Counted from the first letter of the stretch, positions 7,486-48,465 are shown. The stretch: 64,000 nt of DNA from Chloroflexota bacterium (GCA_002718455.1 PBER01000009.1:15879-79878), one strand, 5' to 3'. Translations and numbers: made by a program. Notes: a model not told the origin generated them from the letters alone.

Positions 7486-7500
7486 AAGATTCTCGTAAAA

Positions 7501-8034
7501 TCAAGTCTTGATTTCGCATAATTTATTTTTTATTTCTTCTGCAAGAGTATTTAAGCTCTTATTATCTGTTTTAATAGAAAACTTTGCCAATTGATAGTAT
7601 TTTTCTCTTTGTTCGTATAGAGATGAAAGTTCATTTTCGTTAATTTTTTCTCCAAGTAAAGGTCTAATCTCCTTCGATTCCTCTAAACGTTTAATTATTG
7701 TTTTTATTGTAGAATTTAGCCAAATCATAATTCCATAATGGTTCATAATCTTCAGGTTCTCTTTTATTGTAGGAATCCCTCCTCCTGTAGAAATAACCAT
7801 TTTTGAATCATAATTAATTTCATTTAAGCATTCGGTTTCGATCTTTCTAAAATAATTTTCACCTCTACGAGTAATTATTTCACTGATTTTCATATTTAGA
7901 TTAGCTTCTATTTTTTTATCAGTATCTAGAAAATTAAATTTTAATTTTCTTGCTAATAATTTTCCTACTGAACTCTTTCCTGAACCAGAAAATCCTATTA
8001 AGAATAAGTTATTGTATCTATCTCTATTTTCCAT
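7501..8034 (-). CDS. aroK: shikimate kinase
   Basis: 177 aa. P-loop GFSGSGKSSVGKLLA. Overlaps the aroC end by 11 nt. Confidence 0.9.
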   Translation of the reverse strand: MENRDRYNNLFLIGFSGSGKSSVGKLLARKLKFNFLDTDKKIEANLNMKISEIITRRGENYFRKIETECLNEINYDSKMVISTGGGIPTIKENLKIMNHYGIMIWLNSTIKTIIKRLEESKEIRPLLGEKINENELSSLYEQREKYYQLAKFSIKTDNKSLNTLAEEIKNKLCEIKT

Positions 8035-9202
8035 ATTCTTTAAAAGATGAAATGTAGGCTTTATAATTTCTTTTTATCTCTTGAATACTATCACCACCAA
8101 ATTTTTCAAGTACAACCTCGGATAACGTTATAGCTAACATTGCTTCTCCTATAGGACATGCTCTTGCTACCTGACATATATCTGATCTATTATAAGCAGC
8201 TTCAACAATATCTCCTGAGATAATGTCAACCGAAGGAAGGGGTTTAGTCATTGTTGCTATAGGTTTTACAGCCACGTTCACAATTATGTTATTACCATTT
8301 GACATTCCACCTTCAAGCCCACCAGCATGATTTGTTTTGTGTGAAAATTTTCTTTCGTCTTGTGAATTTGGCTCTATAACATCTTGAACTAAATTCCCAT
8401 ATTTTTCAGTATTGTTAAATCCGTTACCTATTTCAACACCCTTTACAGCATTAATGGACATCATTGATTGAGCTATTTTACCATCTAATTTATTATCCCA
8501 TTGAATATAATCACCTAGGCCTAAAGGTATCCCAAAGCCTATAACTTGAAACACACCACCGATTGTAGTTCTTTCTTTCTTTGCTTGATCAATAACATTT
8601 GTGAATAACTGTTCTTCTCTAGTATTTGTAGATCTAACTATAGAATTTTCAACATGCTCCCAATTTATTTGATCAACATTAGCTACAGATGTTTTTTCCC
8701 ATCCTATGGATATAACGCGAGATTTTATATCAATTCCAATCTCTGATAAAAATTTTTTGCATATGGAACCTACTGCAACTCTAGCAGCAGTTTCTCTAGC
8801 ACTGGCTCGTTCTAAGACATTACGCACGTCTTTGTGGTTATATTTTAGTGTTCCAGGAAAATCAGCATGTCCTGGTACTATTTTTGTTTGGCGCTTAATA
8901 TCATCTTTTTCATTCACTGGTTCTATTGCCATTGCTGTTGTCCAATTCTCCCAGTCTTTATTTTCAATCCACAATGATATCGGTGACCCAAGTGTTTTCC
9001 CATGCCTAACTCCGGACTTTATATTGGCACTATCTTTTTCAATTTTCATCCTGCCACCTGAACCATATCCTTTTTGTCTTCTTGACATGTCAATTCGAAT
9101 ATATTCTTCACTTAATGATAAATTTGAAGGGATACCTTCTAAAATCACGGTCAAGCCCATTCCATGAGATTCCCCAGCTGTTAAAAATCTAAACTTTGTC
9201 AT
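8024..9202 (-). CDS. aroC: chorismate synthase
   Basis: 392 aa. N-terminus FRFLTAGESHG and overall family pattern. Confidence 0.95.
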   Translation of the reverse strand: MTKFRFLTAGESHGMGLTVILEGIPSNLSLSEEYIRIDMSRRQKGYGSGGRMKIEKDSANIKSGVRHGKTLGSPISLWIENKDWENWTTAMAIEPVNEKDDIKRQTKIVPGHADFPGTLKYNHKDVRNVLERASARETAARVAVGSICKKFLSEIGIDIKSRVISIGWEKTSVANVDQINWEHVENSIVRSTNTREEQLFTNVIDQAKKERTTIGGVFQVIGFGIPLGLGDYIQWDNKLDGKIAQSMMSINAVKGVEIGNGFNNTEKYGNLVQDVIEPNSQDERKFSHKTNHAGGLEGGMSNGNNIIVNVAVKPIATMTKPLPSVDIISGDIVEAAYNRSDICQVARACPIGEAMLAITLSEVVLEKFGGDSIQEIKRNYKAYISSFKEYGK

Positions 9203-9218
9203 AATAATTCCTCTGTAT

Positions 9219-10064
9219 CTATAATTTTATACCAACAGAATCAAGCATTGTATTTATAGGAGCTTTTTTATTTGTTAAAAGTTCAAATCCTGAAGCAGCT
9301 TGGAACACTAACATAGATAAGCCTCCTATAGTGTCTATTTTATTATTTTTGGCATCTCTTAAAAATGGAGTGATTTGAGGTGAATAAACTAAATCATAAC
9401 ATAATGCCCTAGTGTTGAGTAAACTCGTGTCGATAGGAGATTTTTTTGGGTCTGGACCACCAGTCATACCAAGTGAAGTTGCATTTATAATTAAATCTAT
9501 TTCTTTTAAGGTGGTTAAATTATTCAATTCTTTAAAATCCATGATTTTTATGTCCGTTTGGTTATTAGCAAATAATTCTTTAATTTCCTCCGCTTTTTGT
9601 AAAGTACGATTGGAAATTATAATTGATTTAACTTTTCCTTTTATAAGGCCCTGGCAGATAGCTTTTGCTGAACCTCCTGCACCTATTATCAAAGCTGATT
9701 TATTTTTGATTGATTTTTTGTAAAAATCTAGACTATTAATAAAACCAAGCCAATCTGTATTATAACCACTTAATGTTCCATTCTTATTTATTATCCAATT
9801 AATCGCATCAATTTCTTTTGCTGAATTATCTATATTATCAAGGTATTGCATTACTTTTTTCTTATAAGGCAAAGTTATACAACATCCTAAAACATTTTCA
9901 TTTCTAAGAGATTGTATCTTATCTTTTAGTAACTTTTCTTCAGTTTCCCAAATTTGGAAATCTATATTGTAACCTAGTTCATTAAATGCTGAATTATGAA
10001 TAGTTGGAGACAAAGTATGTCCAAGAGGGTATCCTATAATTCCAGCTTTCATATTATTTTGCAT
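9219..10064 (-). CDS. aroE: shikimate dehydrogenase
   Basis: 281 aa. GIIGYPLGHTLSPTIHN and the Rossmann motif GAGGSAKA. Confidence 0.9.
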   Translation of the reverse strand: MQNNMKAGIIGYPLGHTLSPTIHNSAFNELGYNIDFQIWETEEKLLKDKIQSLRNENVLGCCITLPYKKKVMQYLDNIDNSAKEIDAINWIINKNGTLSGYNTDWLGFINSLDFYKKSIKNKSALIIGAGGSAKAICQGLIKGKVKSIIISNRTLQKAEEIKELFANNQTDIKIMDFKELNNLTTLKEIDLIINATSLGMTGGPDPKKSPIDTSLLNTRALCYDLVYSPQITPFLRDAKNNKIDTIGGLSMLVFQAASGFELLTNKKAPINTMLDSVGIKL

Positions 10065-14433: not shown

Positions 14434-16125
14434 TTGTCAAAAGAACTCAAAAGCAAAAAATGGTTTGGGGAGAAAAATCTTGAAGGTTTTCTTCATAGAT
14501 CAGGAATGAAAGCCCAAGGCTGGCCTGAAAATATGATCAAAGATAAACCAATGATAGGTATAGCAAATACGTTTTCTGAGGCTGTTCATTGTAATTCTCA
14601 CTTAAGAATTTTAGCAGATCATGTAAAAAAAGGTGTTATAGCCGCAGGTGCTACTCCTATTGAATTCCCTGTTATATCATTAGGAGAATTTTTTTTATCT
14701 CCAACTTCAATGTATCTGAGAAATCAAATGTCTATTGATATAGAAGAAATGATAAAGGGATTGCCTATTGATGGAGTTGTTATTTTGACAGGTTGCGATA
14801 AAACTACTCCAGCAGCAATCATGGGAGCAGCTTCAGCAAATATTCCTACTATAATTCTACCTGGAGGACCATCTTTAAAAGGTAACTGGAAAGGAGAAGA
14901 ATTGGGTTCTTGTACTGACTGTAGAAGATATTGGAACGAGTTAAGAGCAGGAAATATATCTCAAGAAGATTATGATTCTATGGAAGAATCTATTTATCGT
15001 TCTCCTGGTTTTTGCATGGTTTCTGGAACTGCCTCCACAATGGCTTGTATTTCTGAAGCTATGGGAATGACTTTAGTAGGTGCTGCAACTCTACCAGCTG
15101 TTGATTCAAGAAGAATGGCATTAGCAAATAAATCTGGTCAACAAATTGTAAACTTAGTAAAAAACAATGTAAAATTTGAAAACTTTTTAGATAGACAAAA
15201 CTTTCTTAATGGAATTGTAACACTCATGGCTATGGGTGGATCTACTAATGCGATAATACATCTTCTTGCTATGGCTGGAAGAACCAAAACAAAGATTACA
15301 CTTGATGATTTTAACCAAATTTCAGAAAAAACTCCTGTGTTAGCCAATTTAAAGCCTGCAGGAACAAAATTAATGGAAGATTTTCATTATGCAGGTGGCG
15401 TTTCAGCATTATTGAAAAATATAAAACATCTTCTAAATCTTGAAACAAAAAGTGTATCCGGACAAACCTTGAAAGATATTTTAGATCAATCTGAAAATTT
15501 TGACCAACAAGTAATAAGGTATCCATCAAATCCCGTCAATGATAAAGGTAGTATCGCGATCATAAAAGGATCTTTAGCACCAGATGGAGCTGTTATAAAA
15601 GTCGCTGCAGCCAGTAAAAAATTTCTTAATCACATTGGCAAAGCAATAGTATTTAATAATGCAAAAGAATTGTCCGATAAAATTGATGATCCAGACCTTG
15701 ATATAAGTGAGAATTCTATAATCGTATTAAGAAATCAAGGACCTATAGGTGGTCAAGGAATGCCTGAAAGTGGTTTCTTACCTATTCCGAAAAAACTTCT
15801 AGACAAAGGGATTCGAGACATTGTAAGAATATCTGATGCTCGTATGAGTGGCACTGCATATGGAACTATAATTCTACATATTGCTCCAGAATCATATATT
15901 GGAGGTCCTCTTTCATTAGTAAAAACTGGAGATAAAATAAAATTATCTTTAAAAACTAAATCTATAGATTTATTAGTTGATAATAAAACACTATCTGAAA
16001 GGAAATCTTTACTTAAGGATAGTAAACATAATTCAGAATACGATCGAGGGTATGGCTGGCTTTATAAAAATCATATTTTACAAGCTGATCAAGGATGTGA
16101 TTTCGATTTCCTAAAAGCTAAATAA
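14434..16125 (+). CDS. IlvD/Edd-family dehydratase, sugar-acid (aldonate) dehydratase-like branch
   Basis: 563 aa with a TTG start. CDKTTPAAIMG and GTASTMA motifs. The N-terminus (KKWFG...GFLHRSGMKAQGW) resembles arabinonate/xylonate dehydratases more than biosynthetic IlvD. Confidence 0.8.
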   Translation: MSKELKSKKWFGEKNLEGFLHRSGMKAQGWPENMIKDKPMIGIANTFSEAVHCNSHLRILADHVKKGVIAAGATPIEFPVISLGEFFLSPTSMYLRNQMSIDIEEMIKGLPIDGVVILTGCDKTTPAAIMGAASANIPTIILPGGPSLKGNWKGEELGSCTDCRRYWNELRAGNISQEDYDSMEESIYRSPGFCMVSGTASTMACISEAMGMTLVGAATLPAVDSRRMALANKSGQQIVNLVKNNVKFENFLDRQNFLNGIVTLMAMGGSTNAIIHLLAMAGRTKTKITLDDFNQISEKTPVLANLKPAGTKLMEDFHYAGGVSALLKNIKHLLNLETKSVSGQTLKDILDQSENFDQQVIRYPSNPVNDKGSIAIIKGSLAPDGAVIKVAAASKKFLNHIGKAIVFNNAKELSDKIDDPDLDISENSIIVLRNQGPIGGQGMPESGFLPIPKKLLDKGIRDIVRISDARMSGTAYGTIILHIAPESYIGGPLSLVKTGDKIKLSLKTKSIDLLVDNKTLSERKSLLKDSKHNSEYDRGYGWLYKNHILQADQGCDFDFLKAK

Positions 16126-16189
16126 TTTTTGTCATTTGATTTAGATTTTTTTTCAAAATCAGGTTTATAGGATAATGTCTTTTAAATTG

Positions 16190-17251
16190 TTATAGCAAAG
16201 ACAAAATCGCGCTAGTAACATCATTTGTTTGAGATTCTCCACCAAGATCAGGAGTTAATGTATCTCCTTTCTCTAAAACTTTTTTAACAGATAATTCTAG
16301 TTCTTGGGCTGAATCTTTTTCTCCAAGATGATCTAACATAATTGCTGCTGTTAATATTTGGGCCATAGGATTAGCAATTTTCTTTCCTGCTATATCTGGA
16401 GCTGATCCATGAGTTGGTTCAAACATTGAAGGACTATTATTTGTGGGGTCTATATTTCCACTTGATGCTAATCCCATAGAGCCAGTAATAATTGCACCAA
16501 TATCTGTTAAGATGTCACCAAATAAATTACTTGCCACCACAACATCAAATTCCTTAGGTCTTCTCAAAAAGTCCATACATGCAGCGTCTATTAACAGTGA
16601 ATTGGTTTTAATTGAAGGATAATCAATCTTAACTTCATTGAAAACTCTATCCCATAATGTCATAGAGTATCCTTGCGCATTAGATTTAGTAATAGAAGTT
16701 ACATGATTTTTCTTATTTCTACTTTTAGCTAATTCAAATGCGTACCTTATCACTCTTTCACATCCTTTGCGGGTAAATACTGCACTTTGAACTGCAATTT
16801 CTTCAGGAAAATCTCTATATTGAAATCCTCCAACATTTGCATACTCTCCTTCTGTATTTTCTCTAACAACAACTAGATCTATATCGTAAGGTTTTATATT
16901 TTTTAATGGTGACTCTACTCCAGGGTATAAAATACTAGGTCTCACACAAGCAAATTGATCAAAAGCTCTTCTTATAGGGAGTAACAATCCATTTAAAGTA
17001 ATATGATCTTGTATATCTGGATGACCAACTGCTCCTAAGAAAATTGCATCAAAATTTTTAAGTTGTTTGATACCGTCTTTCGGCATCATTTCATTATGTT
17101 TAAAATAATATTCTGAACTCCAATCAAAATATTCTAAAGAGAATGTGTAATTTTTATTTTTACTTTGTTTTGTAATAACTTCTATAGCACTTTCAACGAC
17201 TTCAATTCCAATCCCATCTCCTGGAATTACAGCTATTTTATATTCTTTCAT
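16190..17251 (-). CDS. tartrate dehydrogenase/decarboxylase-like (isocitrate/isopropylmalate dehydrogenase family)
   Basis: 353 aa. The N-terminus YKIAVIPGDGIGIEVV is typical of the TtuC/D-malate dehydrogenase subgroup. Confidence 0.75.
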   Translation of the reverse strand: MKEYKIAVIPGDGIGIEVVESAIEVITKQSKNKNYTFSLEYFDWSSEYYFKHNEMMPKDGIKQLKNFDAIFLGAVGHPDIQDHITLNGLLLPIRRAFDQFACVRPSILYPGVESPLKNIKPYDIDLVVVRENTEGEYANVGGFQYRDFPEEIAVQSAVFTRKGCERVIRYAFELAKSRNKKNHVTSITKSNAQGYSMTLWDRVFNEVKIDYPSIKTNSLLIDAACMDFLRRPKEFDVVVASNLFGDILTDIGAIITGSMGLASSGNIDPTNNSPSMFEPTHGSAPDIAGKKIANPMAQILTAAIMLDHLGEKDSAQELELSVKKVLEKGDTLTPDLGGESQTNDVTSAILSLL

Positions 17252-17253
17252 TT

Positions 17254-18117
17254 TTATTCCTTATTTTTTTCAAATAACTGGATAATTCCAGCAATGTCTT
17301 CCATTTCTTTTCCCATGTTTCTATATTGATCGAAAAGTATTTCTGTTGATTTTATTAAGGGTAAACTTAAATTAAAATCTTTTGCTAATTCTGTAACAAT
17401 GTGTATATCTTTGATTAAATTTCTAGCAGGAGCGGGTGAACCAATATATGATTTATCTCTGATGATAGGAGCTGATCTTTCTAGCATTGTAGAATTACCG
17501 AAACTCACTGACAATATTTCCATAGCATCTTTAATTGTTATGCCAACAGCATTAGCTAATGATATAGCTTCAGCAGCAGCAGTTGTATGAACTGCTGTTA
17601 ATAGTTGATTTATTAATTTCATTGCAGTTCCTGCACCTGTATTTCCCATATACTTAACCTTGGTTCCCATCATTTCGTAATAAGGTAGAGCCATAGTATA
17701 GTCATCCAAATTTCCGCCTACCATAATTGATAAAGTTCCATCTTTTGCACCTGTGGGTCCTCCGGATATTGGAGCATCTAAAAATGACACCCCTTTTTCC
17801 TTCAATAGTCTGTGACTTTCAATACTTGTCTGTAAACTTACAGTTGAATGATCAGAGACAATTTTAACATTATTCGAATATCTTTTTATTCCTTTTACAA
17901 TTTGAATTGAAGTTTCAATATCGGGAAGACATATAAAAATCAATTCTGTATCTTTAGATATTTGTTCTAGAGAACTTGCTCCTTTTGCTCCTTTTTGTTT
18001 CATTACGGAAATTTTTTCTTTAGATCGTGTAAACACCATTAAATCTGCACCTTTATTTAACAAATTATCTGCCATTCCTTGACCCATATTCCCTAGTCCT
18101 ATAAAACCTATTTTCAT
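17254..18117 (-). CDS. NAD(P)-dependent 3-hydroxyisobutyrate / tartronate-semialdehyde reductase family dehydrogenase
   Basis: 287 aa. KIGFIGLGNMGQGMA Rossmann motif and HIBADH-type fold. Confidence 0.8.
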   Translation of the reverse strand: MKIGFIGLGNMGQGMADNLLNKGADLMVFTRSKEKISVMKQKGAKGASSLEQISKDTELIFICLPDIETSIQIVKGIKRYSNNVKIVSDHSTVSLQTSIESHRLLKEKGVSFLDAPISGGPTGAKDGTLSIMVGGNLDDYTMALPYYEMMGTKVKYMGNTGAGTAMKLINQLLTAVHTTAAAEAISLANAVGITIKDAMEILSVSFGNSTMLERSAPIIRDKSYIGSPAPARNLIKDIHIVTELAKDFNLSLPLIKSTEILFDQYRNMGKEMEDIAGIIQLFEKNKE

Positions 18118-18129
18118 ATCTTTCTCTTT

Positions 18130-19095
18130 TTACAAATTTTGTTTAACATTTTCCAAAAGGGCAACTATACTTTTGTAAATTAATTCTTTAGAATTTGCCC
18201 CGTTATGTGAGGTCAAGATTACATTTTCTAGTGTTTTTAGAGGGTTAGTTTCTTCAATTGGTTCTTTCTCAAAAACATCCAATGCAGCACCTGCTATTTT
18301 TCCTGTAATAAGTGCATCATATAGAACTGATTGATTAATCAAGGATCCTCTTGCCGTATTGATTATTATTGCATTTCTTTTTATTTTTGAAAATTCCTCA
18401 ATATCAATTAAATGTCTTGTTTCTGGAGTTAATTTTGTGTGGATAGAAATCACATCCGAATTTTCAAGTAACATATTTATATCTGCAACTTCTGCAAATT
18501 CTTCGATAGTTCGTATTCTTTCGTTACCTACACGTATTACTGGAGTCATAATGACATGCATTCCTAAACTTGCAGTTAGTTTAGCTACCTGTTCTCCAAT
18601 CATCCCTGAACCTATGATACCCATAGTTTTACCATTTATTAAATCGACCTCTATTGAAGGCCATTCGTTATTATTTTTGATTCTATCGTTTATTTGAGGG
18701 ATTTTTTTTATGAGAGAAAAAATCATTGCTATTGTATGTTCCGCAACAGACATGGTGAAACTATTTGGGATCGAAGTAGTCACAATCCCATTTCTTTTTG
18801 CTGCATTTACATCGATATGGTCTAATGCTGTACCGAAAACAGCAATATGTTTCAGAGAAGGTGAATTTTCAATAACATCGTTGTCTATTTTTGTAGTTGC
18901 TTTCGTAACGACTACAGTATGAGAGTCTTTTATTCTTGAAATGATTTCAGCATTGTCTTCGGGTCTTGAATAATATAAATCAATTTCTCTATTTAACGAG
19001 TTCAGACCTTTTGAGATTTCAGTTTTAACTGAAAATATCTCTGTTTCATCATCAATAATAACTATCTTTTCCATATTTATATCATTTACAATCAA
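18130..19095 (-). CDS. D-isomer-specific 2-hydroxyacid dehydrogenase
   Basis: 321 aa. GIIGSGMIGEQVA, the NTARG motif, and a HNGANS-type C-terminal part. Confidence 0.8.
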   Translation of the reverse strand: MIVNDINMEKIVIIDDETEIFSVKTEISKGLNSLNREIDLYYSRPEDNAEIISRIKDSHTVVVTKATTKIDNDVIENSPSLKHIAVFGTALDHIDVNAAKRNGIVTTSIPNSFTMSVAEHTIAMIFSLIKKIPQINDRIKNNNEWPSIEVDLINGKTMGIIGSGMIGEQVAKLTASLGMHVIMTPVIRVGNERIRTIEEFAEVADINMLLENSDVISIHTKLTPETRHLIDIEEFSKIKRNAIIINTARGSLINQSVLYDALITGKIAGAALDVFEKEPIEETNPLKTLENVILTSHNGANSKELIYKSIVALLENVKQNL

Positions 19096-19140: not shown

Positions 19141-19473
19141 ATGGCGACTTACAGAATCCTTTTTTGGAAAGAAATACCAACTCAAATTAAGTACAATGAT
19201 GATTTGAATTCAACAAAATCCTATATGCTATCTGATTTTTTTCAACAGGCAGTTGATTCTATAGCTATGTTTGATGGCTCTATAAAATCTGATGAATATT
19301 TGAATGCTTGGAGTTGGGGAGAAGAAACAGAAACAAATTTCAAACCTGAAGAAATTGTTGACATCTATAATGATAATATTCCAGAAAAATTTTTAAGTAA
19401 AATAAAAACATTACATGAAAACGGGAATAGAAATCCAATTCCGGGAGCAATTGATTCATGGTTCAAAAATTAA
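19141..19473 (+). CDS. small conserved protein, possibly of the misnamed 'virulence factor' domain family that accompanies split MetH-like proteins
   Basis: 110 aa. YRILFWKEIPTQI and AVDSIAM...DEYLNAWSWG resemble, from memory, the YWRDIPAQV-type small proteins found next to S-methyl_trans and B12-binding genes. Overlaps the next gene by 16 nt. Confidence 0.5.
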   Translation: MATYRILFWKEIPTQIKYNDDLNSTKSYMLSDFFQQAVDSIAMFDGSIKSDEYLNAWSWGEETETNFKPEEIVDIYNDNIPEKFLSKIKTLHENGNRNPIPGAIDSWFKN

Positions 19474-20381
19474 AACCAAATGCACAAAAAATATTAAATG
19501 ATATAAAAAACAATAAAATTTTTTTACTTGATGGCGCTACAGGCACACACCTTCAAAACAATGGTCTTGAACCTGGTGGATGCCCTGAACTAATGAATAA
19601 AGAAAATCCAGAAATTATTTCATCTATGGCTGAGATTTATTATAAAAATGGGAGTGATATTGTTCTAACAAATTCTTTCGGAGGAAATAAGTATAGACTA
19701 AGACACTATGAATTAGGTGATGACGTCTTTGAATTAAATAAACTAAGTGCAATGTTAGCAAAGGAAGAATCTGAGAAATACACTGAAAAATTTGTTTTTG
19801 GATCGATAGGTCCAACTGGTGAATTCTTAGAACCTTTAGGAGCAGTTTCTGAATCTGAAATGTATGATGCATTTGCCACTCAAATGAGTGGTTTGTTTGA
19901 AGGTGGAGTTGATGGTTTTTTGATTGAAACACAAATAGCAACTGAAGAAACAGAACTGGCTATAAAAGTAGCTAAAGAAAATTTCAATATTTTAATACTA
20001 GCTTCTGCTGTTTATGATAAAGGACCAAAAGGTTTTTTTACAATGTTTGGTCTAACTCCAAAAGAAAGTTTACGAATATTCTTCGAGTCAGGTGCTCACG
20101 TCGTAGGAACAAATTGTGGTAACGGATCTGAAAAAATGGTTGAAATATCTAAACAATTACGATCATTTACAGACAAGCCATTAATAGTTCAGGCAAATGC
20201 AGGAATACCTAAAATAAAAAAACAGGATATAATTTATCCTGAATCACCTGAATTTATGCAGGAAAAATATAAAGAATTGATTATAAATGAAATCAATTTC
20301 ATTGGTGGATGTTGTGGAACAAACTCTGAACATATACGCCTTTTTCACGAATTGATAAGGAGACATAATGAGAGTATTTGA
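19458..20381 (+). CDS. homocysteine S-methyltransferase-domain protein (MetH N-terminal module / BHMT-like, Zn-thiolate type)
   Basis: 307 aa. LLDGATGT, plus the Zn-ligand cysteines in GTNCGNG and IGGCCGTNSEHI. Confidence 0.9.
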   Translation: MVQKLKPNAQKILNDIKNNKIFLLDGATGTHLQNNGLEPGGCPELMNKENPEIISSMAEIYYKNGSDIVLTNSFGGNKYRLRHYELGDDVFELNKLSAMLAKEESEKYTEKFVFGSIGPTGEFLEPLGAVSESEMYDAFATQMSGLFEGGVDGFLIETQIATEETELAIKVAKENFNILILASAVYDKGPKGFFTMFGLTPKESLRIFFESGAHVVGTNCGNGSEKMVEISKQLRSFTDKPLIVQANAGIPKIKKQDIIYPESPEFMQEKYKELIINEINFIGGCCGTNSEHIRLFHELIRRHNESI

Positions 20382-21012
20382 AGTTAGAGAACAATTCGGC
20401 AATTGTTTAGAATTGGTTTCAATGGATCCAAATTTCCATAATATCACAGTAGGTTTGTTTATTAAAAATGACATTTTGACAGTTTGGTCATATAGCAAAA
20501 AAGAAGGTGTCAAATTAAGGTTAAATACAATAAGAGATAAAATGGTTGAATTGGGTGGCTTAAAATCTATTGATGAAGATTTTAAACTAAAAGTTCCAAA
20601 AGGATACTTTATTGAAAGGCCTTTAAGATTTTTATTTACACAATCAGTTGAAAAAGGACCTGATTTCAAATTTGATACCGGTCCAATTTCGGCATCAGAT
20701 AATAAAACAAAATTACTTTTCAATATCCAAGGGCAAAAGATGAATGATAACTACATCTATGTAGTTTCAACTAAAGGTGAACATGAACGACCATTTATTA
20801 GAATTAGAGCTGTAATTGGAGGATTTGTTAAATATGGTGAATGTATAAAAATCAATGATGAAAGTTTCTGTTTTAAAGATAAAAAACAACATGATGAATA
20901 TGTAAGAATTCTACTTCCTTATGCACGAAACGTAAGTGCTGTTGAAAATATGATTACTACTTCTGAACAAACAGGACAAATGAATACGCAGACATTAGGA
21001 TTTTCACAATAA
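20368..21012 (+). CDS. hypothetical protein embedded in the corrinoid methyltransferase operon
   Basis: 214 aa. AAGGAG lies 6 nt before the ATG. Overlaps the upstream gene by 14 nt. No motif recognised. Confidence 0.7.
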   Translation: MRVFEVREQFGNCLELVSMDPNFHNITVGLFIKNDILTVWSYSKKEGVKLRLNTIRDKMVELGGLKSIDEDFKLKVPKGYFIERPLRFLFTQSVEKGPDFKFDTGPISASDNKTKLLFNIQGQKMNDNYIYVVSTKGEHERPFIRIRAVIGGFVKYGECIKINDESFCFKDKKQHDEYVRILLPYARNVSAVENMITTSEQTGQMNTQTLGFSQ

Positions 21013-21024
21013 AAAGGAGTTCAT

Positions 21025-22056
21025 ATGAAAACAATGACCAAAAAAGAAAGAGTCTTTAATGCTTTGAATAGACAAGAAGTTGACAGGCCTCCCGTTGCAA
21101 ATCCAACTTCTGTAGCTACTGTCGAAATGATGGATTTAGTAGATGCACCATTTCCTGAAGCATGTCGATCAGCTGAATTAAATGCAAGATTAGCTGCAAC
21201 AGAAATTACTGAATTTGATTTTGATGCTATTGCTCCTTATTTTTCAATTATTCAAGAATCAAGCGCTATTGGATGCGATATGCAATGGGAACAAAAAGAT
21301 AATTGGCCTACTGTCAGGATGAGTAATCCTATATGGCAAGGTTCTTCAGATGTTAAGGTGCCTAAAGATTTTTTAGAACATAAAGACACTAAAGTTATTA
21401 TTGATTCAATTAAGATTTTAAGAAAAGAATTTGGTAACGACATTCCGATAATAGGTAAAACTATGGGTCCTTGGACTTTAGCATATCACGTTTTTGGTGT
21501 GGAAAAATTTTTACTCGGTACAATTGACAATCCATCTGAAACAAAATTAGCCCTTGAAAAATTAAAAGAGTTTACTTATTTATTTGGGGAAGCACAAATT
21601 GATGCTGGTGCTGATATACTTACTGTTCCCGACCATGCGACAGGAGATTTGGTTTCAGGTCAGTATTACAAGACATTTCTTCAAGAATTACATACTGAGA
21701 TGGCAGAAAATTTTAAAGTACCTCTTATTTTACATATATGCGGACGAACGGTAGACAGGATGCCTGCAATATCAGAGACCGGTATGCATGCGTTTCATTT
21801 TGATTCTAAGAATAAACCTGAAGAGGCAATGAATGCAGTACAAAACAAAATTGCATTAGTTGGCAATATTAATAATCCTGAAACTTTATATTCTAAAAAC
21901 ACTATAGAGGTAAAAAAAGAAGTCTTTGATTGTTTAAATGCTGGTGTACAAATTATCGCACCAGAATGTGCTATTCCTTTAAAAACTAAATCTGAAAATC
22001 TTATAGCTATAACCGAAGGTGTTTCAGATTGGCTTTCTGAACACAATAAAAATTGA
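21025..22056 (+). CDS. MtaA/CmuA-type methylcobamide methyltransferase (uroporphyrinogen decarboxylase family)
   Basis: 343 aa. N-terminus KKERVFNALNRQEVDRPPV, and the Zn-ligand pattern LHICG ... APECAI typical of MtaA/MtbA/MtsA. Confidence 0.85.
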   Translation: MKTMTKKERVFNALNRQEVDRPPVANPTSVATVEMMDLVDAPFPEACRSAELNARLAATEITEFDFDAIAPYFSIIQESSAIGCDMQWEQKDNWPTVRMSNPIWQGSSDVKVPKDFLEHKDTKVIIDSIKILRKEFGNDIPIIGKTMGPWTLAYHVFGVEKFLLGTIDNPSETKLALEKLKEFTYLFGEAQIDAGADILTVPDHATGDLVSGQYYKTFLQELHTEMAENFKVPLILHICGRTVDRMPAISETGMHAFHFDSKNKPEEAMNAVQNKIALVGNINNPETLYSKNTIEVKKEVFDCLNAGVQIIAPECAIPLKTKSENLIAITEGVSDWLSEHNKN

Positions 22057-22098
22057 GTGATGATAAAATAAAATTATATATTTTTTACCAAGGAGGAG

Positions 22099-22845
22099 TT
22101 GTTGTTTGAGCATGAAGGGCTATCAAAAGAATTCGAATTCGTAACTAAAGAAAGTGAAATTAAACATATTGGCAATTCAATACAAAACACTTCTTTAAAA
22201 ATGCAAACAATAGCCTTCGCTCTTATACAAGGGGATCAAGATACGGTAGGTGAACTTACCAAAGAATGTTTGGAAGAAGGGATATCAGCAAATGAAATAC
22301 TTGACAATGGACTTCTAAATGGAATGTCAATCGTAGGAGTTAAATTTAGAGACAATATTATTTTTGTTCCCGAAGTTCTTATATCTGCAAGAGCGATGAA
22401 AGCCGGAATGGCACATATTGAACCTATTTTATCTGAATCAGGAATAGAACCTCAAGGTAAGGTCCTAATGGGAACAGTAAAGGGAGATCTACATGACATC
22501 GGGAAAAATTTATGCATTATGATGTTAAGAGGAGCAGGTTTTACTGTGTATGACTTAGGTGTTGATACTTCACCTGAAGATTTTGCAGATGGATTCGAAG
22601 AATATCAACCAGATGTAATTGGAATGTCAGCATTACTTACTACAACAATGCCTAATATGGGTAGAACTATTCAATATTTTGAAGACATTGGGTTACGTGA
22701 TGATGTAAGATTGATGGTCGGAGGAGCGCCCGTAACTCAAGAATTTGCTGATGAAATGGGAGCGGATGCTTATGGAGAAAGTGCAGTTGATGCAGTTGAG
22801 AAAGCAAAAGAGTTAATTGTATTATTAAAAGATTTAAGAGATTGA
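22099..22845 (+). CDS. corrinoid (cobalamin-binding) methyl-carrier protein
   Basis: 248 aa. B12-binding motifs GDLHDIGKN (DxHxxG), SALLTTT and GGAPVT, plus an N-terminal helical cap. The start is ambiguous: TTG at 22099 or 22102 just after AGGAGG, or ATG at 22201. Confidence 0.9.
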   Translation: MLFEHEGLSKEFEFVTKESEIKHIGNSIQNTSLKMQTIAFALIQGDQDTVGELTKECLEEGISANEILDNGLLNGMSIVGVKFRDNIIFVPEVLISARAMKAGMAHIEPILSESGIEPQGKVLMGTVKGDLHDIGKNLCIMMLRGAGFTVYDLGVDTSPEDFADGFEEYQPDVIGMSALLTTTMPNMGRTIQYFEDIGLRDDVRLMVGGAPVTQEFADEMGADAYGESAVDAVEKAKELIVLLKDLRD

Positions 22846-22857
22846 TTTAATTTTAAA

Positions 22858-23121
22858 ATGCCTTCTGAAAAAAAAAGATTGGAAAAAAGCCTCGATAAAT
22901 TGTTCAAAATTTATAAGGATATTTCGACAAAAGCTGACGAAGTTAATCAATATCGCTGTCCTTATAAAAACGCAAAAAACATTTGCACGGCTACTTTCAA
23001 ATGCTTAAATCAACATTTTATAAAAGATAATCCAAAAGAACCAATCTGTATAGGTTCTGAAAAATTAGATTATAGGCCAGCCTGGATTACTGATCAACCA
23101 ATTAAAAGTAATGACGAGTAA
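22858..23121 (+). CDS. small Cys-containing hypothetical protein
   Basis: 87 aa with four Cys (RCPYKNAKNICTATFKC...PICIG). Lies 12 nt after the corrinoid gene and overlaps the activase gene by 11 nt. Confidence 0.5.
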   Translation: MPSEKKRLEKSLDKLFKIYKDISTKADEVNQYRCPYKNAKNICTATFKCLNQHFIKDNPKEPICIGSEKLDYRPAWITDQPIKSNDE

Positions 23122-24745
23122 TAATTATAAATATGAAGAAAACTCTTCATCACTAAGTCTTAATACTACAATATTTCAATGTGCAGATAAAATAAAATTA
23201 AGAATACCAACTTCTTGTGGACGTTTGGGTGAATGTCATGAATGTATAGTAGAAATCTTAAATGGAAAATCTAACTTATCTAATAGAACTGAAGAGGAAA
23301 TGTTTCTTAAAGATCCATTTAGATTAGCATGTCAAGCTAAAATTGTTTCAACAAAAGAAAAATTATCATTTAGACCAAGAAACCGAGACAGAAAAATTTT
23401 AACAGATTCTTTTTTACCCAAAACATTTGAACTTTCTAATAACTTTATAATTTCTTCTAACGGTGTTGAAAAAAAAGAAAATGATACATTTGTGAAACTA
23501 CTTGATAAAGAATCTGATATTTATGGTTTAGCAATTGATGTGGGAACCACCACAGTTGCTATTAATTTAGTAAATTTACTTACAGGAGAAATTTTACTTA
23601 CTTCTTCATATGAAAACCCTCAAGTTTTTGGTGGATCAGATGTTATCAACCGTATATCGTACGATTCAACTAAATTTAAAGGAGAATTACACAAAGCAAT
23701 AATTTCTTCAGTTAATTTTGAAATAGGTGAAATGATTAAACCATTAAAGATTAGAAGAAGACAAATCATAGAAATAACTATTGTAGGGAATACTACAATG
23801 AGAGATATATTTTTCGATTTAAACGTTGAAACAATAGGACTCAAACCATATAAATCTTCAATAGAATTCGATTATATAAATAATAAAGTTGAGTCTACAG
23901 AACTGAAAAGATCTGCTAAAGAAATGGGAATCAGGATTAATCCAAAAGCTCTTATATATAGTCCTCCACTTATAGCATCTCATATTGGTTCTGATGTATC
24001 TGCTGGTTTGATTTCCTCTAGTTTTTTTGATAACGATTCGAATAAATTATTTATAGATATTGGTACAAATACTGAAGTTGTAATAGGAAATTCAAAAAAA
24101 ATGAGCGCAGCCTCTTGTCCAGCTGGTCCAGCATTTGAAGGAGGAGAAGTCACTTTTGGAATGCCAGGGTATGATGGAGCCATAGAAAAAGTAAAATGGA
24201 ATGATGGAGGGATAACTTTTCAAACAATAGGTAATTCTGAACCTTTAGGTATATGCGGCTCTGGTTTAATAGATTTGCTTTCTGAAATGAAAAAGAAAAA
24301 ATATATGAACGACTTAGGACAATTTAAAAACCAAGAAAATGAATTAATAATTGATAAAGAAAATAATATTCTCATATCTCGAAAAGATGTTTCAGCTCTA
24401 GCTCAAGCCAAGGCTGCGAATGTGTGTGGTCAAGCTTTAACTATAAAAGATTATGGTATTTCTATAAATGATTTAGATACTGTATATTTAGCAGGTGGAT
24501 TTGCTAGTTATATAGATGTAGATAATGCAAGAGAAATTGGTTTTATCTTGAATTTTCCTGAAGATAAAATTGTTAAAATAGGTAACTCAGCATTAAATGG
24601 TGCAACCCATTTGTTGCTATCCGATCAAGCTAGAAATAAATTGGTAAAATATGTTAAACAAATAAACCATTTAGAATTAGAAACCAAAACTGAATTTTTT
24701 GATTATTTTGTTGAAGGATGCCAATTTAAAAAAATTAATTTATAA
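23111..24745 (+). CDS. RACo/RamA-like reductive activator of corrinoid enzymes (2Fe-2S ferredoxin plus ASKHA ATPase)
   Basis: 544 aa. Plant-type ferredoxin cysteines SCGRLGECHEC...LACQAKI. ASKHA phosphate motifs GLAIDVGTTTVAINLV and IDIGTNTEVV. Confidence 0.85.
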   Translation: MTSNNYKYEENSSSLSLNTTIFQCADKIKLRIPTSCGRLGECHECIVEILNGKSNLSNRTEEEMFLKDPFRLACQAKIVSTKEKLSFRPRNRDRKILTDSFLPKTFELSNNFIISSNGVEKKENDTFVKLLDKESDIYGLAIDVGTTTVAINLVNLLTGEILLTSSYENPQVFGGSDVINRISYDSTKFKGELHKAIISSVNFEIGEMIKPLKIRRRQIIEITIVGNTTMRDIFFDLNVETIGLKPYKSSIEFDYINNKVESTELKRSAKEMGIRINPKALIYSPPLIASHIGSDVSAGLISSSFFDNDSNKLFIDIGTNTEVVIGNSKKMSAASCPAGPAFEGGEVTFGMPGYDGAIEKVKWNDGGITFQTIGNSEPLGICGSGLIDLLSEMKKKKYMNDLGQFKNQENELIIDKENNILISRKDVSALAQAKAANVCGQALTIKDYGISINDLDTVYLAGGFASYIDVDNAREIGFILNFPEDKIVKIGNSALNGATHLLLSDQARNKLVKYVKQINHLELETKTEFFDYFVEGCQFKKINL

Positions 24746-24754
24746 AGGAGCAAT

Positions 24755-25744
24755 ATGAAATATAAAGCAATTGTAACCGATTATGTTTGGCCTAATTTAG
24801 ATATTGAGAGATCGATATTAAATGAAAATGAAATTGATCTTGTTGATTGTAAATCTATGAGCCGCGAGGAGATTTTAAGTGAATCAACTGATGCCGATGC
24901 AATAATTTTTTGCTTTGCAGATGTAGATTCAGAATTGTTAGAAAAAGCGAAAAAATGTAAAGTTGCTTCTCGATATGGAATCGGTGTTGATAATATTGAC
25001 ATAAAAAAATGTACTGAACTAGGTATAGTGGTAACAAATATTCCAGATTACTGTTTAGAAGAAGTTGCAGACCATGCTATTGGTATGATTTTAAGTTTAA
25101 ATCGTCGAATTACAGAACACTGGGATTTAGTAAAAAATGGAGGATGGCATGAATTAAATCTTGATATTCCTGTTCTTAGATTAAGTGAAGCTACTTTAGG
25201 TATAGTAGGATTTGGAAGAATTGGCAAAACTATAGCTCAAAGAATGTCATCTTTTGGAGTAAAAATAATTGCTTCTGATCCAATTTTGAAACCTGGTGAA
25301 ATTATTGATAACGTAAAAATTGTTACTTTTGATCAATTGTTGGAACAATCAGATTTTATAACAGTGCATGTTCCCCTTATGGAAGATACACACCATTTGT
25401 TTTCAAAACCAGAATTTTCCATAATGAAGAATAATGCAATATTAATCAATTGTGCTAGAGGAGGCCTGATTAATGAAATGGATGCAGCATTAGCTTTAAA
25501 AAACAATGAAATTGGCGGAGTAGGCTTAGATGTAATAGAGGACATGTCAGATAAACCAACTAGTCCATTATTTGAATCTAAAAATGTTATTATTACACCG
25601 CACACAGCTTTTTTTTCTAAATCTTCAAATGAAGAACTTCAAAAAAGAACAGCTCAAGAAGTAGTAAGAGTAATAAATTCAAAACAACCAGAAAATTTTA
25701 TAAATCCTGAAGTAATTAATAATTCAAGATTGAAATTAGTTTAA
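24755..25744 (+). CDS. D-isomer-specific 2-hydroxyacid dehydrogenase (CtBP/PGDH-like)
   Basis: 329 aa. GIVGFGRIGKTIA, NCARGGLI and TPHTAF motifs. AAGGAG-preceded ATG 9 nt after the activase gene. Confidence 0.8.
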   Translation: MKYKAIVTDYVWPNLDIERSILNENEIDLVDCKSMSREEILSESTDADAIIFCFADVDSELLEKAKKCKVASRYGIGVDNIDIKKCTELGIVVTNIPDYCLEEVADHAIGMILSLNRRITEHWDLVKNGGWHELNLDIPVLRLSEATLGIVGFGRIGKTIAQRMSSFGVKIIASDPILKPGEIIDNVKIVTFDQLLEQSDFITVHVPLMEDTHHLFSKPEFSIMKNNAILINCARGGLINEMDAALALKNNEIGGVGLDVIEDMSDKPTSPLFESKNVIITPHTAFFSKSSNEELQKRTAQEVVRVINSKQPENFINPEVINNSRLKLV

Positions 25745-36337: not shown

Positions 36338-37345
36338 TCACCTCAAATCCATAATTAATTTACCAAAATTATCTCCTTCAAAGAGTTTCATGAAATTTTC
36401 TGGTATTTTATTGAATCCTTTGTGTATATCTTCCCTATAAACAATCTCTCCTGATTGAATCCATCTTATTAATGCATTCATTGCTTCCGGATATTTATGC
36501 TCATAATTAAAAACTATAAATCCTTGCATTGTAGATTGTTTTGTCAATAATGTTCTTGCCACTCTTGGTCCTGTAGGAATAGATGAAGAATTGTAAATAG
36601 CTATTTGTCCACAAACGGCTGTTCTAGAATAAAGGGAAATATGATTCATAACAGCATCAGAGACTTCTCCTCCGACATTATCAAAATACATATTAACAAA
36701 ATTTTCTCCTATTTTTCCTAATTCTTTGTCAATATTTTGTTTTTTATAATTGAGGCAAATGTCAAAGTTTAAAGTTTCTTTACAATACTTAACCTTTGTA
36801 TCATTACCTACAATTCCTATTACTTTACAGCCCATCAGTTTGGCAATTTGTCCAACAATAGAACCGACTGCACCTGATGCGGCAGAAATAACAATGGTTT
36901 CTCCTGGTTTCGGTCTGCAAACTTCAGTAAATCCCAAATAAGCTGTCCTACCCGGCATTCCCAAAACACCTAAAGAATAAGTAATCGGTATTTCTGGAGG
37001 TAAATCTATTTTGTTAATTTGAGATTTTTAATCTACAATACCATATTTTTGCCATCCCAATCGTGTATTAATATATTCTCCTTCTTTATATAACTTTGAT
37101 TTAGTTTTTATGATTTTAGCAATAACTTCACCTTCCATTACACCTCCAATTTCAACTGGTGCTACATAGGAAGGTCCTGCGTTCATACGCCCTCTCATAT
37201 ATGGATCCAGAGACAAATATTGAGCTTCAATGAGTATTTCTCCATAATTTAAATCTCTTGTTGTTGTGTGTTTTAAAGTTAGGTCAGTTTCTAAATTAGG
37301 AACACCTACAGGTCTTTTAGATAATATCCATTGTTTATTTTTCAT
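36338..37345 (-). pseudogene. NADP-dependent oxidoreductase of the CurA/YncB/PTGR (MDR) type, interrupted by one in-frame TAA
   Basis: ORFs 37028..37345 and 36338..36964 are in the same frame. Reading through the TAA at 37028-37030 gives ...GWQKYGIVD*KSQINKIDLPPEIPITYSLGVLGMPGRTAYLGF..., collinear with E. coli CurA (SLGVLGMPGFTAY). Confidence 0.75.
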
Positions 37346-39282: not shown

Positions 39283-39909
39283 TTGAAAGATTTAACAAAA
39301 ATCATTTCTAATAATTCTCCTAATCTGGGATTTAAACCTGGTAAAGTAAACCACAGTTTAAAAAAATTATTAATATTAGGTTATTCAAAAAATATATTTA
39401 GAAAAAAAGTTTTAGAGTGCGATGCTTATATATTCGGCTCATCGATTAAAACTGAAATGGGATTCTGTTCAGGTGTACAAATAACAAAATCGGACAATTT
39501 ATCAACTTTAGAAAAAACAGATTTTATAGTAATAGATAATCCTTCAGATGTAAATTTCAATATTTATAGGTATAAAAATCCTATAGGAATAAAAATTAAA
39601 GAAAAATTGAGTCTATTACGTATCAATGCCATCGAGGCCATTAATTTTGATTTTATAATTTACGATAGAGCTCTTTCTCCTAATTTTAATGATATTTTAG
39701 ATATTAAAGAATTATTATCCAATATTGATACACATTGTTTTATAAATATCCATAAATCTAATATAAATTTAGATTATTTAGAATTAATATTTGATATAGA
39801 TATTTCAGGAATAGTAGTAGATCTAGATACTCTGAATAAAAAGGAGTTTTCAAATTTAACAAAGAATATTAACAATCTAAAAGAAGCAAAAGAAAAGAAA
39901 GATGAGTAA
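39283..39909 (+). CDS. hypothetical protein, translationally coupled to tyrA
   Basis: 208 aa. TTG start 2 nt after the PAC2 stop. Overlaps the next gene by 8 nt. No motif recognised. Confidence 0.5.
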   Translation: MKDLTKIISNNSPNLGFKPGKVNHSLKKLLILGYSKNIFRKKVLECDAYIFGSSIKTEMGFCSGVQITKSDNLSTLEKTDFIVIDNPSDVNFNIYRYKNPIGIKIKEKLSLLRINAIEAINFDFIIYDRALSPNFNDILDIKELLSNIDTHCFINIHKSNINLDYLELIFDIDISGIVVDLDTLNKKEFSNLTKNINNLKEAKEKKDE

Positions 39910-40891: not shown

Positions 40892-40896
40892 CTCAA

Positions 40897-45461: not shown

Positions 45462-45553
45462 TGGCGGGAGAGAAAGGGAATCGAACCCTCCTTGATACAA
45501 AGATCAATCATAGTTTTGAAGACTAGAAAATTCACCAGAAAATACTCACTCCC
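45462..45553 (-). tRNA. selC: tRNA-Sec (anticodon UCA)
   Basis: 92 nt: GGGAGTGAGTATTTTCTGGTGAATTTTCTAGTCTTCAAAACTATGATTGATCTTTGTATCAAGGAGGGTTCGATTCCCTTTCTCTCCCGCCA. 8-bp acceptor stem with one U:U mismatch, and a 5-bp T stem with a TTCGATT loop. The anticodon loop CTTCAAA matches E. coli selC. Long variable arm with TTGAT/ATCAA stem, G73 and encoded CCA. The D stem is weak. Confidence 0.8.
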
Positions 45554-45565
45554 TAATCATTTAGA

Positions 45566-48463: not shown

Positions 48464-48465
48464 AA

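Follow-up and report, generated by a model that had tools for sequence, protein, structure and literature searches.

A conserved corrinoid methyl-transfer operon of Chloroflexota that pairs a UroD-family methyltransferase with a homocysteine methyltransferase module

Gene Content of the Operon

The stretch of Chloroflexota bacterium DNA analysed here (GCA_002718455.1, PBER01000009.1:15879-79878), referred to as the window, is 64 kb long with a G+C content of approximately 30%, and carries an operon for corrinoid-dependent methyl transfer at 19141-25744 on the + strand. The operon had been predicted from the sequence alone as eight co-directional, tightly coupled genes. All eight open reading frames (ORFs) were found at the predicted coordinates, and the overlaps of 16, 14, and 11 nt and the gaps of 12, 42, 12, and 9 nt between them were reproduced. 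The first gene (19141-19473) encodes a free-standing PF13769 protein of 110 aa and overlaps by 16 nt the gene for a homocysteine (Hcy) S-methyltransferase module of 307 aa (19458-20381; PF02574). Next come a 214-aa protein of a new family (20368-21012) and the enzyme whose subfamily it partners, a zinc methyltransferase of the MtaA/CmuA family with a UroD fold (343 aa; 21025-22056; PF01208). They are followed by a corrinoid (B12) carrier of 248 aa with a TTG start (22099-22845; PF02607 and PF02310) and a four-cysteine (4-Cys) protein of 87 aa (22858-23121). The latter gene overlaps by 11 nt the gene for a RACo/RamA-type ATP-dependent reductive activase (544 aa; 23111-24745; Fer2, Raco_middle, and RACo_C_ter). 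After a gap of 9 nt, a D-2-hydroxyacid dehydrogenase of 329 aa (24755-25744; PF02826 and PF00389) ends the operon. The set includes every component of a corrinoid methyltransferase system, and the genes are translationally coupled.

Scans against Pfam and NCBIfam agree with the domains assigned in the original prediction, that is, the Hcy methyltransferase, the MtaA/CmuA-like protein, the corrinoid protein, RACo, and the 2-hydroxyacid dehydrogenase. The zinc sites it named (GGCCGT and HxC...C), the DxHxxG motif, and the four cysteines were located and are conserved across the orthologues. Three proteins had been described as small or unknown. This description stands for the 214-aa protein, which has no family assignment, but not for the 110-aa and 87-aa proteins, which are activase modules. 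An Rfam scan of the window detected only a tRNA-Sec and no B12 riboswitch. A scan for promoters and terminators was uninformative, with 37 promoter-like sites against 45 expected.

Conservation of the Cassette

Since the 214-aa protein is without family assignment, it was used as the marker of the cassette. Its relatives are encoded at 331 places in the GTDB genomes, taken as one genome per species, and the cassette is counted as conserved in at least 331 species genomes, most of them Dehalococcoidia/SAR202, together with Tectimicrobiota and Acidobacteriota. Neighbours were counted at the best 80 of these 331 loci, and only loci with enough flanking DNA enter the denominators. The 80 loci belong to Chloroflexota (Dehalococcoidia/SAR202; 71 loci), Acidobacteriota (four), Entotheonella/Tectimicrobiota (four), and one unclassified genome. 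They repeat the gene order at identities of 42-93% for the 214-aa protein. UroD is present at 75 of 77 loci, and the corrinoid protein and the 4-Cys protein are each found in the cassette at 68 of 70. The Hcy methyltransferase is present at 67 of 72 loci, the PF13769 protein at 61 of 68, and an adjacent RACo at 53 of 65. The downstream 2-hydroxyacid dehydrogenase follows the activase at 43 of 64 loci, with Tectimicrobiota among them. Constraint is highest in UroD (61-97% identity) and the carrier (62-96%). The nearest public relatives are metagenome-assembled genomes of Dehalococcoidia/SAR202, such as JAPYUX010000001.1, in which the 214-aa protein is 93% identical and its neighbours are 84-96% identical to those of the window. 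The original prediction had suggested a comparison of synteny, and the cassette order is indeed kept across related genomes. Because this order recurs in 80 species-level loci, chance juxtaposition can be ruled out, and the cassette is, by comparative evidence, a real and ancient operon.

Hosts of the cassette include soil Acidobacteriota and symbionts of sponges, and SAR202 itself ranks with the most abundant bacterial groups of the dark ocean. In several SAR202 genomes (L001, L058, L064, L072, and L080), the 214-aa gene and URO-D are separated by insertions in an otherwise unchanged gene order. The insertions are toxin-antitoxin-like DUF433/DUF5615 pairs or a DUF4268 gene. A SAR202 sublineage (L070, L072, L077, L079, L080, L082, L085, and L086) has no RACo beside the cassette. 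Several of these loci carry a downstream FNR-like gene (FAD_binding_6 and NAD_binding_1) and an NMT1-type binding protein. The FNR-like gene recalls the PaaE-like oxidoreductase of cmu clusters.

Two Zinc Methyltransferases

Two zinc methyltransferases of different folds are encoded in the operon. The 343-aa protein matches PF01208 at 3.6e-66 and passes the cut-offs of TIGR01463 (MtaA/CmuA; 237.0 versus 235.4 bits) and NF004889 (265.1 versus 244 bits). It falls short of the equivalog models for MtaA (239 versus 400) and MtbA (200 versus 600). MtaA (4ay7) is matched at 4.9e-45, and H237, C239, and C315 are aligned to its zinc ligands. This triad, H237-x-C239...C315, is invariant in 76 orthologues. 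It is also aligned with the H-x-C...C triad of CmuA (from pCMU01), which is 23% identical to the UroD of the window. These matches identify the protein as a bona fide member of the MtaA/CmuA family. A single URO-D gene is found per cassette, both in the window and at all related loci. Searching a plasmid collection with the UroD sequence returned hemE-like matches only.

The second zinc enzyme is the 307-aa protein, which has PF02574 as its sole domain (1.7e-57). Its best PDB match is the Hcy domain of T. maritima MetH (1q7m, 2.6e-44), and BHMT is matched at 6.6e-9. The zinc cysteines C220 and C285/C286 (GGCCGT) are conserved in 66 orthologues. Against metH models, the protein scores 150 where the cut-off is 1011. 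We propose that it is the second methyltransferase (MT2) of the system and transfers the methyl group from the methyl-corrinoid to homocysteine, giving methionine. Annotation pipelines label this protein or its orthologues (P0277, P0302, and P0374) as "5-methyltetrahydrofolate--homocysteine methyltransferase" or "methionine synthase". The naming of folate can be corrected, as the protein contains no folate domain.

Corrinoid Carrier and Activase Modules

The carrier consists of a B12-binding_2 cap (PF02607, 5.1e-21) and a Rossmann B12 domain (PF02310, 4e-28) with the motif D130-x-H132-x-x-G135, and its N-terminal extension is conserved. The nearest solved structures are 1y80 (1.6e-60) and MttC (7xcn, 8.8e-45), whereas the B12 domain of MetH is matched at approximately 1e-26. 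By this measure, the carrier resembles methylotrophic corrinoid proteins far more than MetH. MtgC and MtbC are the top NCBIfam models, both below cut-off. With the B12 protein of a Terrarubrum cluster that also encodes DUF1638 and PF13769-RACo proteins, the carrier shares 53% identity.

The 544-aa activase contains Fer2 (1e-6), Raco_middle (2.5e-39), and the ASKHA domain RACo_C_ter (1.7e-67), and scores 336 bits with the AcsV model. C36, C42, C45, and C74 form a four-Cys 2Fe-2S motif. The 110-aa protein matches PF13769 ("Virulence_fact") in Pfam at 1.5e-9, which had escaped the original prediction. On the Terrarubrum plasmid NZ_CP091854, the same domain is found at the N-terminus of a 760-aa protein, followed by Fer2, RACo_linker, Raco_middle, and RACo_C_ter. 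The gene for this protein lies downstream of B12-binding and DUF1638 genes, an arrangement that matches the split-MetH accessory set of Phaeobacter and Ruegeria (PMC5764234, PMC12478193). Because the domain is fused to RACo domains in Terrarubrum, the 110-aa protein is regarded as a detached N-terminal module of RACo/RamA-type activases. The Pfam name "virulence factor" is misleading in this respect and can be corrected to activase module. The PF13769 protein co-occurs with the Hcy methyltransferase. At L088 (11756-14038), PF13769 is the N-terminal module of an alphaproteobacterial RACo/RamA-type corrinoid activase. A word-indexed homologue search with the 110-aa query found close relatives only.

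The 87-aa protein has no match in Pfam or NCBIfam. Its pattern is RCPYK..CTA.F.C..Q...C.G..DYR.AW, and the four cysteines are kept in 73 orthologues. In four sister cassettes, the 4-Cys module is fused to the N-terminus of RACo in proteins of 650-664 aa (L091, 12513-14465; L092, 12515-14509; L095, 12563-14545; L097, 12509-14497). On account of these fusions, the 87-aa protein is regarded as an activase-associated module.

A New Protein Family Associated with UroD

The 214-aa family has no Pfam match even at E<5 over 41 members, and none in NCBIfam or among PDB sequences. The AlphaFold2 (AF2) model of the protein has a predicted local distance difference test score (pLDDT) of 87.3 and a predicted template modelling score (pTM) of 0.82. 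It consists of repeated beta-beta-beta-alpha units in a two-layer alpha/beta fold. The C-terminal tail GQMTTQTLGFSQ is disordered in the model yet strongly conserved. Foldseek searches with the model gave a best E of 0.07 in the PDB, with template modelling (TM) scores below 0.25, and no hit at E<0.02 in BFVD. The protein thus belongs to a new family, and its fold, though predicted with confidence, is unmatched in the PDB.

The original prediction would have been contradicted if one of the unassigned ORFs or the UroD-like protein were a pterin-binding module. This is not what was found, given the predicted fold of the 214-aa protein and the family membership of UroD. A hidden pterin, MttB, or MtaB module in the 214-aa protein was rejected because the confident alpha/beta repeat is not a triosephosphate isomerase (TIM) barrel, and no database match points to such a module. 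A homology-based analogy to DUF1638 was likewise rejected (hhalign probability 0.1%). Catalytic Cys or His residues were also considered. The invariance of Cys13 does not extend beyond subfamily 1, and the lineage of the window has lost the CGxxH pairs, so that the protein offers no obvious metal site and no obvious cysteine for methyl acceptance.

An exhaustive profile search revealed a second subfamily, 26-28% identical to the protein of the window and ending in the tail RGVLxAPSAQ instead. Its gene lies immediately upstream of URO-D in 7/7 readable contexts. The 214-aa protein is, on the strength of this gene context, the obligate partner of this UroD subfamily, a partnership that the original prediction had not recognised. 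It may be an accessory or second subunit of the donor methyltransferase (MT1). A plasmid collection search with the subfamily-2 protein found nothing.

Module Exchange among Sister Cassettes

The sister cassettes differ in the enzymes that serve the two canonical methyl acceptors, THF (tetrahydrofolate) and homocysteine. The URO-D proteins of subfamily 2 are 61-66% identical to that of the window, and their genes are followed by those for the corrinoid protein, the 4-Cys module, and RACo. Across the cassettes, the 214-aa protein, UroD, the carrier, and the 4-Cys module form a constant core, usually with RACo adjacent. The variable part consists of one or both of a pterin methyltransferase and the Hcy methyltransferase. 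Approximately 70 loci of Chloroflexota and Tectimicrobiota carry the Hcy methyltransferase and PF13769. In subfamily 2, L091, L092, and L095 carry Pterin_bind alone, and L093 and L097 carry methylenetetrahydrofolate reductase (MTHFR) and Pterin_bind. MTHFR, Pterin_bind, the Hcy methyltransferase, and PF13769 are all present at L094, whereas its close relative L096 has only the Hcy methyltransferase and PF13769. The four Acidobacteriota loci, which belong to subfamily 1, encode Pterin_bind (2.8e-20) and MTHFR (6.8e-34), and the Hcy methyltransferase and PF13769 were not found at these loci. The variants with a pterin methyltransferase are those of Acidobacteriota and Rhodospirillales-like genomes. 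The L093 cassette, which contains MTHFR and Pterin_bind, is flanked by a divergent PurU-type gene (ACT and Formyl_trans_N). This set mirrors the cmuA/cmuB/metF/purU logic of chloromethane oxidation (PMC3621897).

Neither pterin nor MTHFR genes were detected in the 64-kb window when all major ORFs were scanned with Pfam and five pterin modules were used as tblastn queries. Both are also absent from +/-10 kb of the 76 non-Acidobacteriota loci. MttB and MtaB were not found in the window, and neither is one of the conserved neighbour families in the +/-10 kb around the 80 loci and the 7 subfamily-2 loci. The prediction of an operon without a pterin-binding or MttB/MtaB module is therefore upheld for the operon and extends to the whole window. 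Had orthologous clusters always been beside MttB/MtaB, that prediction would have been in doubt, and this was seen at none of the 80 loci. In the commonest variant, UroD is the sole possible partner of the Hcy methyltransferase within +/-10 kb, and in the present case within the entire window.

Because the core is constant while the exchanged partners serve THF or homocysteine, UroD is most simply placed on the donor side. A single donor enzyme would then be matched by one or more acceptor enzymes in every variant of the cassette. It is from module swapping only that we infer UroD as the putative loader of the carrier. The idea that UroD replaces the pterin module, already contained in the original prediction, is echoed by the sister cassettes, although a pterin gene may be present elsewhere in the genome.

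The neighbours of the subfamily-2 cassettes are heterogeneous and include DgcN/DgcA, a 3-oxo-tetronate kinase and decarboxylase, and enolase. Because of this heterogeneity, the idea of an acid-sugar donor, for which these neighbours gave no consistent clue, was dropped. Methylthioribose salvage, considered for the APH-family kinases by three subfamily-2 cassettes, was rejected, since the kinases at L093 and L094 score 42-43 bits with MtnK against 275. FCD-type GntR regulators lie beside three subfamily-2 cassettes and hint at a carboxylate effector.

Proposed Mechanism and Methyl Donor

On balance, we favour the reading that the cassette encodes a three-component B12-dependent system of the methylotrophic type, with UroD on the donor side and homocysteine as the final acceptor. 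RACo and its detached modules (PF13769 and 4-Cys) would use ATP and an electron donor to bring the corrinoid protein to the Co(I) state. UroD and the 214-aa protein would load the carrier from a donor X-CH3, and the MetH-type module would move the methyl group from the carrier to zinc-activated homocysteine, forming methionine. The net reaction would be X-CH3 + homocysteine -> X-H + methionine, without folate or S-adenosylmethionine (SAM). Optionally, the carrier could be a hub, as in MtgBCDE of Ruegeria, and also be fed from methyl-THF by a pterin module that might lie elsewhere in the genome. The design parallels that experimentally proven hub, in which MtgB loads MtgC, and MtgD and MtgE unload it (PMC12478193). 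UroD-family enzymes with MT1 function have precedents in MtpA (bioRxiv 10.1101/548461), CmuA (PMC3621897), and CdmB (PMC13222342).

The His-Cys-Cys zinc site points to X as a soft leaving group, for instance a halide, for which CmuA is the model, a thiolate, a selenolate, or a sulfonium-derived thioether. UroD-type O-demethylases replace the cysteines of the zinc triad (PMC10418091). Since the triad is intact in the UroD of the window, an O-methyl ether donor is disfavoured, and with it the methoxylated compound named in the original prediction. The triad is no proof of a thiol substrate, because CmuA has the same triad. Methyl halides did not appear among the donors first suggested, although CmuA keeps this site. 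By analogy with MetH and Mtr, methyl transfer from a plain thioether is strongly uphill to THF and roughly isoenergetic to homocysteine. Because what is in essence one UroD is coupled to THF or homocysteine depending on the lineage, all variants would be compatible with donors whose methyl-transfer potential is high, for example methyl halides or a sulfonium compound such as dimethylsulfoniopropionate (DMSP). Thioethers and selenoethers (methylmercaptopropionate (MMPA), dimethylsulfide (DMS), methanethiol, and methylselenides) fit the homocysteine variant only. The earlier proposal of MMPA or DMS as the donor thus suits the homocysteine variant, but is hard to square thermodynamically with the THF-coupled sisters.

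A more specific version of this reading is offered tentatively. The cassette may be a folate- and SAM-independent methionine system of SAR202 and sponge-associated bacteria, in which a two-protein donor methyltransferase harvests an abundant compound with a soft leaving group. The donor would be a compound such as a methyl halide, a DMSP-type sulfonium compound, MMPA, DMS, methanethiol, or a methylselenide.

Several points weigh against UroD as the donor-side enzyme. By sequence, it is closest to MT2 enzymes, the methylcobamide:coenzyme M (CoM) methyltransferases MtaA and MtbA, which methylate a thiol instead of demethylating a substrate. L094 contains a complete MetF and split-MetH set beside UroD, which could be a side branch there. 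If X is a plain thioether, the reaction of the same UroD coupled to THF in the sister cassettes would be strongly endergonic. No transporter or product-processing neighbour unambiguously indicates the donor. Furthermore, the transfer from MMPA to Co(I) by MtpA is already unfavourable (bioRxiv 10.1101/548461).

Some of these points recur in an alternative that we consider unlikely, namely a split MetH made up of the carrier, the Hcy methyltransferase, RACo, and the PF13769 and 4-Cys proteins, with its pterin module encoded elsewhere. UroD and the 214-aa protein would then use methyl-Co(III) for the S- or Se-methylation of a small thiol, of sulfide, or of selenide, in biosynthesis or detoxification. 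Methyl transfer from methyl-THF to a thiol is exergonic, the MetF and split-MetH set of L094 would find its place, and the 307-aa protein is already named methionine synthase by pipelines. The best matches of UroD to MT2 enzymes, together with its passing the NCBIfam cut-off for the methylcobalamin:CoM methyltransferase subfamily, point the same way, and scattered split MetH genes are known in Phaeobacter and Ruegeria (PMC5764234, PMC12478193). However, approximately 70 loci in two phyla, and L096 in addition, would hold two acceptor enzymes and zero donor enzyme, and this homocysteine-type cassette is the most tightly conserved, translationally coupled form. The pterin gene that such a split MetH requires was found neither in the window nor within +/-10 kb of the 76 loci, the carrier belongs to the methylotrophic type, and a PurU-type gene adjoins the L093 cassette.

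Salvage of selenium or sulfur shares the chemistry of the favoured reading and differs in the selective benefit. Methyl groups would be stripped from methylselenides (for example, dimethylselenide or methylselenol) or methyl-sulfur compounds for the assimilation of selenide or sulfide, with homocysteine merely a sink. The organism decodes selenocysteine (tRNA-Sec at 45466-45554), and UroD has the His-Cys-Cys site of the MtaA-like Mlp proteins, which are implicated in the use of dimethylselenide; ClMlp2 methylates selenide in vitro (PMC10418091). We nevertheless regard this benefit as quite improbable, since type 1 mlp clusters contain at least two MtaA-like genes and occur in anaerobes only (PMC10418091), whereas one such gene is found here. 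In addition, selD, selA, and selB were not found in the window, and the THF-coupled sisters with MTHFR, among them L093 with its adjacent PurU-type gene, have the appearance of carbon and energy metabolism. The UroD enzyme could also be a generic MT2 in an ordinary betaine, methylamine, or methanol system with an MttB- or MtaB-type MT1 elsewhere, given that the carrier scores best with the MtgC and MtbC models, though below their cut-offs. This is highly improbable, as MttB/MtaB homologues are absent from the +/-10 kb neighbourhoods of all 80 + 7 loci and from the window, the strictly co-inherited partner of UroD is the new 214-aa protein, and bacterial MttB systems use pterin-type MT2s, not MtaA.

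Comparison with Known Corrinoid Systems

In Ruegeria pomeroyi and Phaeobacter inhibens, a split MetH composed of MtgB/C/D/E, RamA, and DUF1638 doubles as a glycine-betaine demethylase (PMC12478193, PMC5764234). As in the cassette, the homocysteine module and the B12 carrier are separate proteins, the RamA/RACo activase includes a PF13769 domain, and the hosts are aerobic marine bacteria. The Mtg carrier is a hub between the catabolic MT1 and methionine synthesis. The carrier of the window also shares its 53% identity with the B12 protein of an alphaproteobacterial B12/DUF1638/PF13769-RACo cluster. The MT1 proposed here, however, is UroD with the 214-aa protein and not the MttB-family MtgB. A pterin module (MtgD) was not found in the operon or the window, and DUF1638 (PF07796) has no match in the window. 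Moreover, the PF13769 and 4-Cys modules are free-standing, and the genes form one operon instead of being scattered.

The CmuA/CmuB system of Methylorubrum extorquens CM4 (PMC3621897) is also aerobic and uses an MtaA-like methyltransferase with a zinc motif and a corrinoid domain as its MT1. The sister cassettes resemble it further in the pterin-type MT2 with MTHFR, and in one case an adjacent PurU gene. CmuA differs in its low identity to the window UroD (23%) and in the fusion of the methyltransferase and corrinoid domains. The cmu core lacks the homocysteine module, the 214-aa partner, and RACo.

MtsA/MtsB and MtpA/MtpC of Methanosarcina likewise use a UroD-family zinc enzyme, which demethylates a thioether onto a corrinoid (bioRxiv 10.1101/548461). 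The MtaA/MtbA family is the closest sequence neighbourhood of the window UroD. The Mts and Mtp systems differ in having coenzyme M as the acceptor, in their anaerobic archaeal hosts, and in a RamA-type activase with Fe4S4 clusters, and they contain neither a homocysteine module nor the 214-aa partner.

Type 1 mlp clusters share with the cassette a His-Cys-Cys MtaA-like protein, a corrinoid protein, and a RACE/Ram-type activase without a THF methyltransferase (PMC10418091). For these anaerobe clusters, which are built from MtaA-like proteins alone, Kountz and Balskus propose corrinoid-dependent demethylation of thioethers or selenoethers, with the methyl group recycled into methionine (PMC10418091). 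Type 1 clusters have both Mlp2 and Mlp3, that is, at least two MtaA-like proteins, whereas the window has one URO-D and so falls outside the type. They are found in obligate anaerobes, mostly Firmicutes, and have neither a PF02574 module nor the 214-aa partner (PMC10418091). Canonical MetH shares the homocysteine module (1q7m) and the methyl-cobalamin:homocysteine chemistry. In the cassette, however, the components are separate proteins, there is no pterin or AdoMet reactivation domain, the carrier is methylotrophic, and the activase is an ATP-dependent RACo.

The system would therefore work like MtgBCDE, CmuAB, MtsAB, and MtpAC, but by its gene content it appears to be a member of none of them. 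New here are the pairing of MT1 and MT2, the obligate partner protein with an unmatched fold, and the free-standing activase modules. A literature search found no paper on this cassette, on PF13769, or on MtaA-like corrinoid systems in SAR202/Dehalococcoidia. In agreement with the original prediction, no characterised system of such composition was found in the searched literature.

Neighbouring Genes and Other Features of the Window

Divergently from the cassette, and approximately 45 bp from its first gene, lies a 2-hydroxyacid dehydrogenase gene (18130-19095, - strand). It is accompanied by genes for a HIBADH-like reductase (17254-18117, -) and a tartrate dehydrogenase (16190-17251, -; TIGR02089, 485 bits against a cut-off of 470), and by an IlvD/arabinonate-dehydratase-like gene (14434-16125, +). 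These neighbours (14434-19095) are kept in synteny through SAR202, and in other SAR202 lineages the divergent operon also contains an SBP_bac_5 ATP-binding cassette (ABC) transporter and an aldo-keto reductase. The divergent dehydrogenases may process the demethylated product or may merely be syntenic.

A thioredoxin gene (WCGPC; 45573-45890, -) is found a short way upstream of the tRNA-Sec (- strand; 66.3 bits with Rfam, and anticodon TCA by ARAGORN). Next to the thioredoxin gene, an operon resembling NAD-linked formate dehydrogenase (45905-50686, -) encodes NuoE-like and NuoF-like proteins and an 852-aa Fer2_4/Molybdopterin subunit, the ORF of which contains no in-frame TGA. Shikimate and aromatic genes form two groups, with aroE, aroC, aroK, and aroB at 6382-10064 (-) and a prephenate-dehydrogenase-like gene with aroA at 39902-42180 (+). 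A 208-aa ORF at 36338-36964 (-) contains only the ADH_zinc_N half of a zinc alcohol dehydrogenase and is truncated or has a mis-set start. Pfam gave no match at E<0.001 for two ORFs, at 3194-3970 (-; 258 aa) and 39283-39909 (+; 208 aa). The G+C content falls to 0.23-0.27 at 54500-64000, compared with approximately 0.30 elsewhere in the window. This region encodes large glycosyltransferase-type membrane proteins (LPG_synthase_TM, PMT_2, and DUF2298), after which come RNase III, a DsbA-like protein, and a protein resembling CCA/polyA polymerase.

Implications

Aerobic MMPA demethylation and cmuA-independent consumption of methyl halides are activities known from physiology for decades without assigned genes, and the cassette is a candidate for both. 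The aerobic cobalamin-dependent DMS "methyltransferase" is also still unidentified (PMC6548844), and the cassette provides a concrete gene candidate for it. If the proposed reading is true, the family would be a candidate aerobic cobalamin-dependent "DMS/MMPA methyltransferase" or a cmuA-independent methyl-halide sink. In that case, the THF-coupled sister cassettes of Acidobacteriota and Rhodospirillales-like genomes would represent the same enzyme in a catabolic form. Corrinoid methyl-transfer enzymology would gain a new obligate partner of UroD-type methyltransferases. In a large group of aerobes, methionine synthesis would bypass methyl-THF and take its methyl group straight from an environmental donor, and the B12 demand of these organisms would be tied to the cycling of that donor.

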